From the NCBI GenBank assembly GCA_025452005.1, contig JANWJK010000020.1, positions 1,740 through 65,739 on the forward strand: DNA of 64,000 nt, given 5' to 3'. Origin of the DNA: Acetobacteraceae bacterium (GTDB lineage: Bacteria > Pseudomonadota > Alphaproteobacteria > Acetobacterales > Acetobacteraceae). Positions 9,566 through 19,022 of the stretch are shown here, piece by piece; positions within the stretch are counted from its first letter, which is position 1; each line of letters starts with the position of its first letter. Under the pieces are notes generated by a model. The model saw nothing but the letters and a program-made list of their open reading frames with translations. It made no database searches and was not told where the DNA came from. Made by a program: the position numbers and the translations under genes.

Positions 9566-10912
9566 GTGTCGGCAGCGCCGAGTTCCGACCTGTCGATGTC
9601 CAGTATTGGCCACGCTGCGCTGGTCGCTGACGACGACGCCATGGTACGTGACGTGCCTCGGTCCCTCCTGACCGAGGCAGGTTACACGGTCATGGCTGCG
9701 GCGAGCGGGCAGGAGGCGTTGGCGCTTGCCTCCTACCTCGACGCTGCCGTGGCGATCCTCGATCTCGCGATGCCGCATGGCGATGGACTGCAGACCTGCG
9801 CTGCGCTGCGAAGGATGGCGAATTGGCGGCATGTACCGATCCTGATTCTGACAAGCTATCATACAGATGCGGCATTACGCGCAGCCCGCTGCGCCGGGGT
9901 CAGCGGTTTCGTCTGCAAGCCGTTCGTATCGTCCGAATTGTTGCGGCGGATCGCCAGCCTGACCGGAGACAGGACGGCACCCAGGCAGCATGCACAGATG
10001 GTCTGGAAGCGCCGGACGCTGGACCGCGATCCGGCGGAAGGGGCCGAGAGCGGCGTGCCGTGGGAGCGATCGAATGCAATGTTTTCGCCGAGCTCGAACG
10101 CGATTCTACAGGCTTATCGCGGCGCGGCCTCGATGAACTGTGGTGCGTCGAACAATTCGGACTGCGAGAATGCGGCGCCGGAGCACCGACGGATTCTGCT
10201 GGCGGAGGATGAGACAACGACGCGCGAGATCGTCGGTCATCTTCTCGCCCAGGAAGGATATCAGGTCGACACCGCCGCAAACGGTCGAGAGGCATTATCG
10301 GCCGTGATCGTCGGCAATTACGATCTCGTCCTCATGGATGTTCGCATGCCGACATTGAGCGGTACCGAGGTGACACGATTGATCCGTTCGCTGCCGAATG
10401 CCAAGCGACACACGCCGGTTATTGCAATGACGGCGAACGCGTTCAACCTGTTCGCTCAGGAAATGCAGGAAGCCGGCATGAACGGCTATCTTATGAAGCC
10501 GGTCAGCGCGCCGGCCTTGCTTGACTGCGTGCGGCAGCACCTTGACGGAGAGGCGCAGCCTGCGGAATACGACCGGCAGACCGGCCCTGCTCGGTTGCTG
10601 GATCTGGAGCGGCTACGGGATGAAGCCAGGTTGTTCGCACCAGGGGCCATGGGGCGGTTCCTGGACAACCTTGCAATCTCGATCGAGGAAATCCTGGCGA
10701 GGGTACAGGGCTGGGTGAGCACGGAACCCGCCGAACTGAGGTGGCGGTTACACAATATGACCGGAGTCGCTGGCACGCTGGGATGCACCGCGCTGTCGGA
10801 GGTCGCCCGCGATCTCGAGGCAGAGGCGGCGCCTTCGGATGCGTTGCGACAACGGTTCATCGCGACGGCGCGGGCATCCCTGGCTGCCATCCGGCAGTAT
10901 CGCATCGCATAG
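9566..10912 (+). CDS. Two-receiver plus HPt phosphorelay protein (REC-REC-HPt)
   Basis: REC1: LVADDD...AILDLAMPHGDG...CKPF. REC2: ILLAEDE...LVLMDVRMPTLSG...MKPV. C-terminal HPt-like LHNMTGVAGTLGCTALSEVARDLE. GTG at 9566 lies 6 nt after GGAGG. The track start at 9527 (GTG) sits inside the gyrB hairpin. Confidence 0.8.
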   Translation: MSAAPSSDLSMSSIGHAALVADDDAMVRDVPRSLLTEAGYTVMAAASGQEALALASYLDAAVAILDLAMPHGDGLQTCAALRRMANWRHVPILILTSYHTDAALRAARCAGVSGFVCKPFVSSELLRRIASLTGDRTAPRQHAQMVWKRRTLDRDPAEGAESGVPWERSNAMFSPSSNAILQAYRGAASMNCGASNNSDCENAAPEHRRILLAEDETTTREIVGHLLAQEGYQVDTAANGREALSAVIVGNYDLVLMDVRMPTLSGTEVTRLIRSLPNAKRHTPVIAMTANAFNLFAQEMQEAGMNGYLMKPVSAPALLDCVRQHLDGEAQPAEYDRQTGPARLLDLERLRDEARLFAPGAMGRFLDNLAISIEEILARVQGWVSTEPAELRWRLHNMTGVAGTLGCTALSEVARDLEAEAAPSDALRQRFIATARASLAAIRQYRIA

Positions 10913-11073
10913 GCCGGCCGATCCGCGGTAGGCAACGTGCGTCGCCTTAACGGGATTTTCTTGTTCCCCAGACAATACTCCGCGGCGCGGCGCACCCTGC
11001 AAGATTCGACGGCGGGCCCGGGCCATGCCGGCCGAATTGTGATGAGCAGTGCACCGACCCACGAGGCCCCGTC

Positions 11074-17018: not shown

Positions 17019-17039
17019 CGAGACTGCCCATCACCGGAG

Positions 17040-19022
17040 GTGATTATCGCAAACGAGTTTCCCGCCGTAGAGCAACGATCGGCCCTGTCGGCCGATGCCC
17101 GGGCCATCCTGGAAAGCATGGGGGATGCCTTCTACGCGCTCGATGGCGAATGGCGCATCGTCTATGCCAATCGTCGCGCGCTGGTGTTCTGGGGCACGAC
17201 GGCGGCGGAGGTCATCGGTCAGCCGATCTGGCAGCGATTCCCTCAGCTCGTCGGCACGCTGAACGAGCGAGTGCTGCGCCAGGTGCGGCATGAACAGCGC
17301 GTGATCACGTTCGAGGCGCCGTCGCCGACCACGGGGATCTGGGTCTCGGTGAATGTCGGTCCGTCGGGCGACGGCGTCACGGTCTATTGGCGCGACATCA
17401 GCGAACGGATCGAAGCCGAGCGCGCGCTCCGCAGTTTCGCCGAGAAGCTGGAACGTGAAGTCGAGGAACGAACCCGCGCACTGAGCGAAGTGGTGGACGA
17501 ACTGCGCCGTTCGCGGGCACGCTACAGCGCCATCTTCGAGAACTCACCGGTCGATCTGGCCTTCATGGCTGTGCAGCCGGATGGCAGGATCGTCTGCGAG
17601 GACGCAAATCCCGCCTGGGAACGCCACTCGGGCTACGCTCGCGCGGCCGTGGTCGCCCGATCGCTAGAGGAAGTCCTGCCGCCCGAGCAGGCAGAGTTCG
17701 CCACCATGCAGTACCGCCGAGCGATCGATTCCAGGCAGCCCGTCGAGTACGAATATACCGCGCGGTTCCCGATCGGTGAGGTATCCCGCCGCTCCTTCCT
17801 GGTGCCGCTGCCCGGTGACAGCGGACGCATCGATCATGTGCTCCTGGCCTCCGTTGACCTGACCGAGATGCGGCGGGTGGAAGCGCAATTGCGGCAGGCG
17901 CAGAAGATGGAGGCGATCGGGCAGCTCACCGGCGGCATCGCCCACGACTTCAACAACCTGCTCACCGCCGTGATCGGCAATCTCGAACTGCTGCAAGGCC
18001 GCCTGACGGATCAGCGTTCAGCGTCGCTCGCCGACGCCGCCATGCGCTCGGCCCTGCGTGGCGGCCAGCTCACCCAGCAACTGCTGGCATACGCTCGCCG
18101 GCAGAACCTGTCGCCGCGACCGGTCGATGTGAACGACGTCATCGTCGGCATGGACGAGCTGCTGCGACGCAGCCTCGGCGGCCTGGTCCAGGTAGAGACC
18201 GATCTCGCACCAAACCTGTGGACGGCCACCAGCGATCCAACGCAGCTCGAGCTTGTCGTGCTCAACCTCGCCATCAACTCGCGGGATGCCATGCCGAACG
18301 GCGGCCGGTTGCGAATCGTGACCGGCAATGTGCAGCAACACGATGCCGCGCGGCTGGATGCGCTCGATCCGGGTGAATACGTGCGAATCGCTGTGATCGA
18401 TACTGGTATCGGAATGGCCCGTAGCGTCATGGAGCGCGCCTTCGAGCCGTTCTTCACGACCAAGGAGATCGGCAAAGGCAGTGGCCTGGGGCTCGCACAG
18501 GTCTACGGCGTGGCGACGCAGTTCGGCGGGACAGTGCGACTCGCCAGCGAACCTGGCGCCGGCACGACGGTGGAAGTTTTCCTGCCGCGCGCCCTGACCG
18601 CGGAGGCCAGCACCGAAATGCCCGAGCAGCACGCCACCGACATGCCGAGTGGCGGAGGCACCGTTCTGGTGGTGGACGACGAACCGGAAGTCCGCGAGAT
18701 CGCTGCGATCTTCCTGCGCGAGGCTGGATATGTGGTGAAGGAAGCCGGTAATGGTCCCGAAGCACGCGACATTCTTGCGTCCGGCCCGATCTGCCTCGCG
18801 CTGGTCTATTACGCTATGCCAATGATGTCGGGCTACGAGTTCGTGCGCCTGGCGCGGTCGATCCAGCCGAACCTCCCCGTGATCTATGTGACGGGCGCTG
18901 CCGATAAGCTGGGACCGGGCACAGTGCCGCTCGGAGATCCCATCGTGATGAAGCCCTACGCACGCGCGTCCTTGTTGAAGATCGTGCGCGAGCGGGCGCT
19001 GGCATCAGTCCCTTCGGTGTGA
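17040..19022 (+). CDS. PAS-PAS histidine kinase with a C-terminal degenerate receiver domain
   Basis: PAS-like segments (ILESMGDAFYALDGEWRIVYAN..., FENSPVDLAFMAV...). H-box GGIAHDFNNLL, then INSRDAM, DTGIGM, GSGLGLAQV. REC: VLVVDDEPEV...LALVYYAMPMMSG...VIYVTG...MKPY. The start is uncertain: GTG at 17040 is the first in-frame start beyond the divergent DUF1194 start. Confidence 0.8.
   Translation: MIIANEFPAVEQRSALSADARAILESMGDAFYALDGEWRIVYANRRALVFWGTTAAEVIGQPIWQRFPQLVGTLNERVLRQVRHEQRVITFEAPSPTTGIWVSVNVGPSGDGVTVYWRDISERIEAERALRSFAEKLEREVEERTRALSEVVDELRRSRARYSAIFENSPVDLAFMAVQPDGRIVCEDANPAWERHSGYARAAVVARSLEEVLPPEQAEFATMQYRRAIDSRQPVEYEYTARFPIGEVSRRSFLVPLPGDSGRIDHVLLASVDLTEMRRVEAQLRQAQKMEAIGQLTGGIAHDFNNLLTAVIGNLELLQGRLTDQRSASLADAAMRSALRGGQLTQQLLAYARRQNLSPRPVDVNDVIVGMDELLRRSLGGLVQVETDLAPNLWTATSDPTQLELVVLNLAINSRDAMPNGGRLRIVTGNVQQHDAARLDALDPGEYVRIAVIDTGIGMARSVMERAFEPFFTTKEIGKGSGLGLAQVYGVATQFGGTVRLASEPGAGTTVEVFLPRALTAEASTEMPEQHATDMPSGGGTVLVVDDEPEVREIAAIFLREAGYVVKEAGNGPEARDILASGPICLALVYYAMPMMSGYEFVRLARSIQPNLPVIYVTGAADKLGPGTVPLGDPIVMKPYARASLLKIVRERALASVPSV

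Follow-up and report, generated by a model that had tools for sequence, protein, structure and literature searches.

A CheZ-family phosphatase homologue and an output-less kinase cassette in the variable gyrB–xseA slot of an uncultured Acetobacteraceae bacterium

Introduction

When a phosphatase of the chemotaxis type is found among sensor kinase genes, do the genes form one signaling system, and on which receivers would the phosphatase act? This question is raised by a 64-kb stretch of DNA from an uncultured Acetobacteraceae bacterium (the whole stretch is referred to as the window), in which a signaling block at positions 9566–19022 contains seven genes, designated g1 to g7 in their order between gyrB and xseA. 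The fifth of them, g5, encodes a homologue of CheZ. Two-component signaling owes its timing to dedicated receiver phosphatases, of which CheZ is the textbook example, regarded as chemotaxis-specific. An initial annotation of the block, made from the window alone, had taken the seven genes for a single novel island with its own phosphatase. The comparative analysis described here suggests instead, with a likelihood that we place slightly above even, that the block is a mosaic of three independent pieces in a variable gyrB–xseA slot and that g5 most likely serves phosphorelay receivers, not flagellar CheY.

CheZ Homology of g5

The gene g5 (15732..16274, plus strand) starts 4 nucleotides (nt) after the stop codon of g4 and encodes a CheZ-family phosphatase homologue of 180 amino acids (aa). 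A total of 1949 homologues were found, the best 120 of which are 72–99% identical to g5 and about 180 aa long, with a precomputed PF04344 assignment for nearly all. The match of g5 itself to Pfam CheZ (PF04344) reached 29.7 bits against a cut-off of 30.7 and was confined to profile positions 113–157, and that to the NCBIfam CheZ equivalog reached 22.5 bits against a cut-off of 257. A phmmer search connected g5 to the E. coli CheZ of structure 1KMI (E = 0.021), with the alignment covering E. coli CheZ residues 109–172.

The catalytic motif is retained. Codons at 16119..16133 (plus strand) encode D130-L-T-G-Q134, the DxxxQ motif equivalent to D143/Q147 of E. coli CheZ, and the surrounding FQDLTGQ is identical to that in 1KMI. 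DxxxQ was invariant in 15 homologues and across both CheZ branches described below, and g5 also has AxxFQ beside it; the two motifs together have been described for alphaproteobacterial CheZ (PMC7750401). An upstream helix, ELEAVV..TE.AA, is common to g5 and E. coli CheZ. Near the end of the protein, the peptide PSDLAQADIDSLFA (16236..16271, plus strand) is the equivalent of the CheY-docking peptide, with a Q-x-x-(V/I)D-x-L-F pattern common to E. coli CheZ, che-linked CheZ and the fused domains introduced below, and the C-terminus DLAQADIDSLFA aligns with SQDQVDDLLDSLGF of E. coli. The N-terminal helix FRRFVDRRIAELSMEIHATVQLVDYSETNLS (residues 17–50, window 15780–15881) is the most conserved part across the g5 branch, with the pattern RRxxE.S.EI.A. 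Neither canonical CheZ nor the fused forms have this helix, which may be a partner-binding element that replaces covalent fusion.

An AlphaFold2 model built from a 15-sequence alignment was of low confidence (predicted local distance difference test score, pLDDT, 66; predicted template modeling score, pTM, 0.26). It presented an all-helical monomer with helices at residues 2–64, 74–104 and 109–154, a disordered linker at 155–168 and a terminal helix at 169–179. A Foldseek search with this model against the PDB returned no match at E < 0.5, only generic coiled coils. Judged by the sequence features above, g5 is a real and constrained CheZ homologue gene.

Two CheZ Branches and Kinase–CheZ Fusions

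A search of 1.84 billion representative proteins with a g5 profile yielded 878 relatives at E ≤ 1e-10, canonical CheZ among them. The best 150 of these 878 relatives included fusion proteins of 686–920 aa, in which the CheZ-like domain occupies the C-terminal 130 residues. According to Pfam analysis, their architecture is PAS-PAS-HisKA-HATPase-REC-HPt-CheZ, with one fragment consisting of HPt-CheZ, and they originate from six independent alphaproteobacterial assemblies of metagenome-assembled genomes (MAGs), for example TAD91973.1, MDX2101052.1 and MFM2044169.1. The fused CheZ domains keep D..Q, the docking peptide and an ...IDALF C-terminus. They lie below the Pfam cut-off, and the fused CheZ parts are probably unannotated in databases. 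Their identity to g5 is 38–50%, closer than that of the che-linked CheZ of g5's own family. One fusion gene sits amid fatty-acid and housekeeping genes. The individual instances are L096 8001–10799 (GCA_004292755.1), P0461, P0470, P0478, P0479 and P0504.

CheZ genes linked to chemotaxis loci also occur in this family. Plasmids of Roseomonas marmotae and Rhodovastum atsumiense carry an annotated CheZ in the order cheY-cheZ-fliK-flgD, near cheAWBR, MCP and flagellar genes, and this protein is 36–38% identical to g5 over half its length. The CheZ of Methylobacterium has the same che linkage. Paracraurococcus lichenis LOR1-02 carries both types: contig 85 has cheY-cheZ-flgD-MCP and contig 4 has a g5-type gene, and the two CheZ-type proteins are 31% identical. 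The che cluster of this species thus has a CheZ of its own and the g5-type gene lies elsewhere, which agrees with the initial annotation, where the CheZ homologue was regarded as not owned by a chemotaxis locus.

Two hidden Markov models (HMMs) were built, one from g5-type and one from che-linked (canonical) sequences. The fused domains scored 86–94 bits with the g5-type HMM and 65–77 bits with the canonical HMM; the corresponding values were 57–68 and 116–131 bits for the che-linked CheZ of Methylobacterium, and 28 and 55 bits for E. coli CheZ. The same division was seen in motifs in a metagenome set of 80 loci. In the 45 ACNFQ-type sequences (A. caulinodans type), LNGP precedes the docking peptide and the N-terminal RRxxE helix is lacking; on the g5 side, LNGP was absent from 34/34 sequences and the RRxxE helix was present in 29/34. 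A crude neighbor-joining tree agrees with the HMM and motif split. These comparisons indicate that the g5 branch, including the domains fused behind a histidine kinase (HK)-REC-HPt core, is separate from the cheY-linked CheZ branch.

In tblastn searches against plasmids, a remote stand-alone protein of the g5 branch (P0412) gave no match, and a fused kinase matched with its kinase part only, the matches stopping by query residue 753, short of the CheZ domain. The searchable literature held nothing relevant on non-chemotaxis CheZ, CheZ paralogues, natural HPt-CheZ fusions or CheZ in Acetobacteraceae, and no description of an orphan CheZ branch linked by fusion to HPt phosphorelays was found there.

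Genomic Neighborhoods of g5

Gene order was compared in 84 loci around g5 homologues, taken from species-representative genomes and from contigs and searched with all window proteins. The set divides into a close clade of 24 distinct loci (g5 73–86% identical) and a distant clade of 60 loci (55–68%). When the genome collection was searched with g5, the best 80 of 321 stretches were Acetobacteraceae-type. The close relatives are uncultured Acetobacteraceae of soil and peat, and the distant clade includes Belnapia, Dankookia, Paracraurococcus and Rhodopila.

The g5-type genes of the distant clade occur in at least 10 unrelated contexts, beside genes for an ABC ATPase, ALA synthase, SecA, a copper ATPase or a nitroreductase, or beside queF or aroE. 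Ten receiver domains were counted in 947 kb of these loci, and none lay within 2.5 kb of g5 in 55/60 of them. No constant neighbor of g5 was present in the 84 genome loci plus the 80 metagenome loci, no che or two-component neighbors were present in the 34 metagenome loci of the g5 branch, and no che, mcp or fla genes stood beside g5-branch genes in about 150 loci. Family-wide, g5 is an orphan gene without a constant neighbor. Dankookia and Paracraurococcus, which carry g5-type genes, have been described as non-motile (PMC8414978, Table 2). As a side observation, the 45 canonical-CheZ loci lie on soil metagenome contigs (L129–L176, 60–64% G+C) of Bradyrhizobium-like appearance, with a predicted lipoprotein near in 34 and groES near in 21.

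Gene Content of the gyrB–xseA Slot

The frame gyrB … g5 … xseA is constant in the close clade. Its left flank, gyrB (7045..9474, plus strand; Pfam DNA_gyraseB, Toprim and GyrB_C), is 86–99% identical in relatives, and its right flank, xseA (19029..20525, minus strand; Pfam Exonuc_VII_L), is 82–89% identical. The nearest relative, L007, aligns with window 1–9477 and 15752–20504 at 83–85% nucleotide identity and has about 108 bp where the window has the 6.3 kb of 9478–15751. The genes g1–g4 were absent from 24/24 fetched close-relative genome loci, and the 84 fetched loci around g5 homologues contained no orthologues of them. DUF1194, the domain of the g6 product, was present in 12/24 close loci and absent wherever a luciferase-like gene was present.

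The g1–g4 genes were recovered from other contigs. L085, a contig from the same species with 99% identity to the window, carries the whole cassette, and all seven genes occur together only there and in the window. Two metagenome contigs, L086 and L087, have the order gyrB-g2-g3-g4-luciferase-g5-g7-xseA, with no g1 and no DUF1194 gene, and in a further contig, L088, g1-g2-g3-g4 is followed by four insertion sequence (IS) elements. Other contigs contain the g2-g3-g4 triad, or a g1-like gene with g3-g4, away from gyrB; a PAS-REC-HPt gene often comes after them and CheZ never does. The cassettes found elsewhere are likewise built only of HK, REC and HPt proteins. The g1–g4 genes are therefore a recurrent cassette in their own right, which is always output-less. 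The seven-gene island of the initial annotation did not stand up to the synteny comparison that the annotation itself had suggested, given the 0/24 close genome loci with g1–g4 and the patchy occurrence of DUF1194.

The slot between gyrB and g5 is a variable hotspot, as seen when window 9478–15751 is set against L001, L008, L012, L017 and L086–L088. Its cargo in relatives consists of a luciferase-like monooxygenase, a penicillin-acylase-like gene, small receivers, or JetA with a methyltransferase and four IS transposases.

How the cassette came to lie in the slot was also considered. Its proteins are 50–69% identical to those of the window compared with 76% for g7, and by pairwise identities the divergence of the cassette scales with that of the host, at about twice the rate of g7. 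Horizontal insertion of g1–g4 was our initial reading and was softened, since with identities that scale with host divergence an ancestral presence followed by repeated loss is equally possible. The G+C content across g1–g4 is 0.60–0.64 compared with 0.65–0.71 in the flanks (65–70% in the surrounding chromosome segment), and this lower value hints at insertion. A search for direct repeats bordering the 6.3-kb g1–g4 segment gave none, and the only repeat at its edges was a hairpin behind gyrB. This inverted repeat (9487..9529, plus strand; repeat search) has 19-nt arms, 89% complementary, and a 5-nt loop, and lies directly 3' of the gyrB stop codon. It lacks a T-tract and was missed by the terminator scan; it is probably the gyrB terminator, of a type that a simple scan does not recognize.

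Domain Organization of the Signaling Block

Every domain call of the seven-gene inventory in the initial annotation was reproduced by Pfam between gyrB and xseA, giving totals of three HisKA/HATPase cores, six receivers, two HPt domains and one CheZ homologue. No output domain was detected in the seven proteins by Pfam or NCBIfam, including lenient scans of unassigned segments, and none of the seven proteins reached a curated NCBIfam cut-off. The window contains no che, mcp or flagellar genes in its 64 kb, and 30 further window proteins are housekeeping proteins. Both absences had been stated in the initial annotation and were confirmed. In the whole g1 and g4 proteins, the HPt matches are below the Pfam cut-off (22.5 and 22.2 vs 24.6 bits), and the HPt segments scanned alone exceed it (26.6 and 25.2 bits). 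Alignment to CheY revealed that five receivers keep the (D/E)D-D-T-K set and that Tyr occupies the phospho-acceptor position of the receiver in g7.

The first gene of the cassette, g1 (9566..10912, plus strand), encodes a REC-REC-HPt protein by Pfam, with DD-D-T-K and ED-D-T-K receivers. It starts with GTG, 8 nt downstream of a GGAGG, and an orthologue of 59% identity heads the same cassette in L088. The gene g2 (11074..12804, plus strand) encodes a membrane histidine kinase with Pfam HisKA and HATPase domains and, by hydropathy, at least 6 transmembrane helices in its N-terminal third. Its residues 1–339 gave no family match at E ≤ 10 and no recognizable sensor domain, and its orthologues in L086–L088 are 50–52% identical. 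The stand-alone receiver g3 (12797..13243, plus strand; Pfam REC only) has an intact active site. The start codon of g3, an ATG, shares 8 nt of overlap with the end of g2, and g3 is translationally coupled to g2. The best solved relatives of g3 are 5IC5 (2.7e-38), 5BRJ (9.7e-36), 8AVV and Rcp1 1I3C (3e-20), which by sequence points to a receiver of the Rcp1/bacteriophytochrome-response-regulator type and not of the CheY type. Its partner g2 is without the PAS-GAF-PHY module of a phytochrome kinase.

The last cassette gene, g4 (13262..15727, plus strand), encodes a REC-PAS-HisKA-HATPase-REC-HPt hybrid kinase by Pfam, with both receivers intact. With ED-D-T-K in REC2 and the HPt histidine in LHDLVSVAGNVG, it has the make-up of an unorthodox hybrid kinase (TorS/ArcB/BarA type). 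It lies below every NCBIfam equivalog cut-off and is thus not an orthologue of any named kinase. Between g4 and the CheZ-fused kinases, the HK-REC-HPt parts show 36–43% identity. In the NCBIfam scan, the g2 core and g4 REC1 matched Leptospira LvrA and LvrB best, below cut-off. The genes g2–g5 lie on the same strand and are tightly spaced, with the 8-nt overlap followed by gaps of 18 and 4 nt, and no terminator-like site was found between them. The 4-nt gap behind g4 makes co-expression of g5 with g2–g4 likely in this strain, in which g5 is probably co-transcribed with them.

On the other side of g5 and g6, g7 (17040..19022, plus strand) encodes a PAS-PAS-HisKA-HATPase-REC hybrid kinase by Pfam. 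Its orthologue adjoins g5 in 20/24 close-clade loci, in the order g7-g5 instead of g5-g7 in one lineage. The phospho-acceptor codon of its receiver is TAT (Tyr) at 18807..18809 (plus strand), within LALVYYAMP in the window vs LALVDYAMP in relatives. The Asp is kept in 20 relative genome loci, in the metagenome contigs L086 and L087, and in the 99%-identical L085. The degenerate receiver described in the initial annotation is seen in the window sequence and does not extend to relatives: the Asp-to-Tyr replacement is a one-nucleotide (G to T at 18807), strain-specific change. The TAT codon reflects a very recent loss of function, or else it is a sequencing error.

Alternative Explanations

Action of g5 on phosphorelay receivers is favored because of the kinase–CheZ fusions, the coexisting cheY-linked paralogue and the lack of che neighbors. 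The domains, active-site residues, gene distribution and fusions reported above are shown, and the substrate of g5 is inferred. Alternatively, g5 could be a second chemotaxis phosphatase that acts in trans on a distant CheY-type protein and is unrelated to the neighboring two-component genes. CheY is the only known CheZ substrate class, g5 keeps both the catalytic motif and the CheY-docking peptide, and its relatives Rhodopila and P. lichenis have che and flagellar genes. On the other hand, the flagellar cluster of P. lichenis already owns an adjacent cheY-cheZ pair, the roughly 150 g5-branch loci have no che, mcp or fla gene beside g5, and the nearest multi-domain relatives are HK-REC-HPt fusions rather than CheA or CheY fusions. 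We regard this second-chemotaxis-enzyme explanation as possible but rather unlikely.

Several observations weigh against the mosaic reading with a phosphorelay role for g5. We know of no experiment in which a CheZ has been tied to a receiver other than CheY. Confidence in the AlphaFold model of g5 is low (pLDDT 66), and its fold search was uninformative. The juxtaposition of g4 and g5 was seen in a single species. The scaling of cassette divergence with the host means that the cassette may be ancestral at the slot and repeatedly lost, not inserted. Canonical-type CheZ genes are often orphans too, as the 45 ACNFQ-type loci in soil metagenomes are also without nearby cheY. Moreover, alphaproteobacterial cheZ can sit far from che clusters yet work in chemotaxis: the A. 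caulinodans enzyme, whose gene lies 37 kb away from the che cluster, has been proven to be a phosphatase of chemotaxis (PMC7750401; PMC8429497). Little can therefore be concluded from position by itself.

A further explanation, close to that of the initial annotation, is that the seven genes constitute one dedicated and co-evolved system, with g3 as both phosphatase target and output and the DUF1194 protein as an extracytoplasmic partner. The tight arrangement of g2–g5 on one strand, with no terminator-like site between the genes, the lack of a detected output domain and the position of the cassette upstream of g5 in three lineages are in line with it. We consider it improbable, however: the seven genes stand together in this species only, the cassette and g5 each occur without the other, and the DUF1194 gene is present in half of the close loci and missing from those with a luciferase-like gene. 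In addition, g3 is by sequence of the Rcp1 type, the defect of the g7 receiver is strain-specific, and nothing singles g3 out as the phosphatase target. What is retained of the initial interpretation is an output-less multi-kinase phosphorelay, and what is given up is the single novel island.

The gene on the opposite strand bears on whether g5 is a gene at all. A 427-aa open reading frame (ORF), g6 (15735..17018, minus strand), encodes a DUF1194/vWA-like exported protein (Pfam DUF1194 238 bits, aa 48–246; signal-like segment aa 28–46). Its DUF1194 domain ends near 16280, and the ORF, without a stop of its own, runs 180 codons further, antisense in codon register with g5, to the complement of the second codon of g5 (15735). 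This read-through is common to 10 related species. An open antisense frame over g5 was observed in 36/84 loci vs 38.8 expected from codon usage, and the chance of 180 open antisense codons in the window is about 0.25. Where the codons TTA, CTA and TCA are rare, such a shadow frame is left uninterrupted. Selection for an antisense ORF over g5 was considered and rejected on these counts. That g5 is not a gene but a CheZ-like shadow of the 427-aa DUF1194 ORF, as the uninterrupted minus-strand frame and the public gene call for L085 (a 408-aa DUF1194 protein annotated, CheZ omitted) might be read, is highly improbable, because g5 is conserved at 55–99% in hundreds of genomes, mostly without an adjacent DUF1194 gene, and bears the CheZ catalytic motif, because the Pfam DUF1194 domain is complete by residue 246, and because the open antisense frame is as frequent as codon usage predicts.

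Other Features of the Window

Promoter and terminator scans over 9.3–19.3 kb gave counts at or below shuffle expectation. Scans of the window for tRNA genes and Rfam families gave no match. The segment 49700–52600, between lpxK and an M24 peptidase gene, is gene-poor and contains short ORFs only (62–126 aa).

Proposed Phosphorelay

A working scheme for the mosaic can be drawn from domain logic, and its phosphotransfer steps are all inferred. In the cassette, g2 would sense at the membrane, autophosphorylate and pass the phosphoryl group to g3, to the N-terminal REC of g4, or to both. REC1 of g4 would gate the PAS-kinase core of the same protein, which could then run an internal His → Asp → His relay through its own REC and HPt domains. 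The REC-REC-HPt protein g1 would be a further Asp-His shuttle, and the final acceptor or terminal regulator would be encoded elsewhere. A second piece is g7, a resident hybrid kinase whose receiver aspartate was lost in this strain alone, and the third is g5, a resident orphan found family-wide.

For g5, a helical dimer is envisaged whose C-terminal peptide would attach to a phosphorylated receiver, in the manner of the E. coli CheZ–CheY complex. Gln134 would be inserted into the active site and, with Asp130, would position the attacking water, thereby speeding hydrolysis of the aspartyl-phosphate. The likely substrates would be the receivers of hybrid kinases or of their downstream partners. 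Candidate substrates for the fused proteins are the receiver of the kinase itself or the regulator that docks on the HPt domain. Within the window, the corresponding candidates are REC2 of g4 and the receivers of g1, and in relatives the candidate is the receiver of g7. The phosphatase may thus drain the g1–g4 relay in this strain, an arrangement that would be local and not ancestral.

A broader proposal is that the second CheZ branch, which has the RRxxE helix and no LNGP, is a dedicated aspartyl-phosphate phosphatase of hybrid-kinase/HPt phosphorelays outside chemotaxis, either fused or free-standing. This is plausible, at somewhat less than an even chance. If it were true, the window would show the unfused form directly behind an HK-REC-HPt gene, and a well-understood catalytic mechanism would be extended to a further class of pathways. 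Output-less multi-kinase networks would gain a point of access, and an explanation would be at hand for hundreds of genes that at present bear the label "chemotaxis protein CheZ" or "hypothetical protein". At the same time, the locus is a caution that a striking signaling cluster can come together by chance in a variable slot of the chromosome.

Comparison with Known Systems

Like E. coli CheZ (1KMI, with CheY), g5 has FQDLTGQ (D143/Q147), the ELxAVV..TE.AA helix, a docking peptide after a flexible linker and a predicted all-helical fold. It differs in length (180 aa vs 214 aa for E. coli CheZ), with a much shorter hairpin, in having no LNGP linker motif, in its extra conserved N-terminal helix (FVDRRIAELSMEIHATVQLVD), and in not being next to cheY or cheA.

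The chemotaxis CheZ proteins of alphaproteobacteria (A. caulinodans, and the cheY-cheZ pairs of Rhodovastum, Roseomonas, Methylobacterium and Paracraurococcus) share with g5 a similar length, AxxFQ and DxxxQ, and the lack of a CheA-short binding region. Unlike g5, they have LNGP and a higher canonical HMM score and lie beside cheY and flagellar, MCP or che genes. The identity between g5 and these proteins is 31–38%, and the g5 type coexists with one of them in the same genome.

The closest multi-domain relatives of g5 are the MAG fusion proteins, which have the IFEACSFQDLT motif and the IDALF C-terminus. Their domain order, HK-REC-HPt and then CheZ, is the gene order of g4 and then g5 in the window. 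They differ from g5 in being a single polypeptide without the g5 N-terminal helix, and they are uncharacterized.

Output-less kinase cascades are known from the Rcp1/phytochrome-regulator and Leptospira LvrA/LvrB systems, and Rhodopseudomonas palustris has cascades of sensor kinase, Rcp1-type receiver and REC-kinase beside its bacteriophytochromes. The g2-g3-g4 genes resemble the bacteriophytochrome and LvrA-LvrB cascades in having a kinase, a coupled single-domain receiver, a receiver-gated second kinase and no DNA-binding output. Unlike in the phytochrome cascades, the input of g2 is multi-transmembrane, g4 adds REC-HPt and g1 adds REC-REC-HPt, and no NCBIfam cut-off is reached.

The searchable papers contained no description of a CheZ-type enzyme as a phosphorelay phosphatase. 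The division of labor proposed for g5 has a parallel in the B. subtilis phosphorelay, where the flux through Spo0F and Spo0A is set by the separate receiver phosphatases Rap and Spo0E (PMC3035606). There, too, a His-Asp-His-Asp relay is combined with dedicated phosphatases, which belong to families (TPR Rap, Spo0E) unrelated to CheZ.

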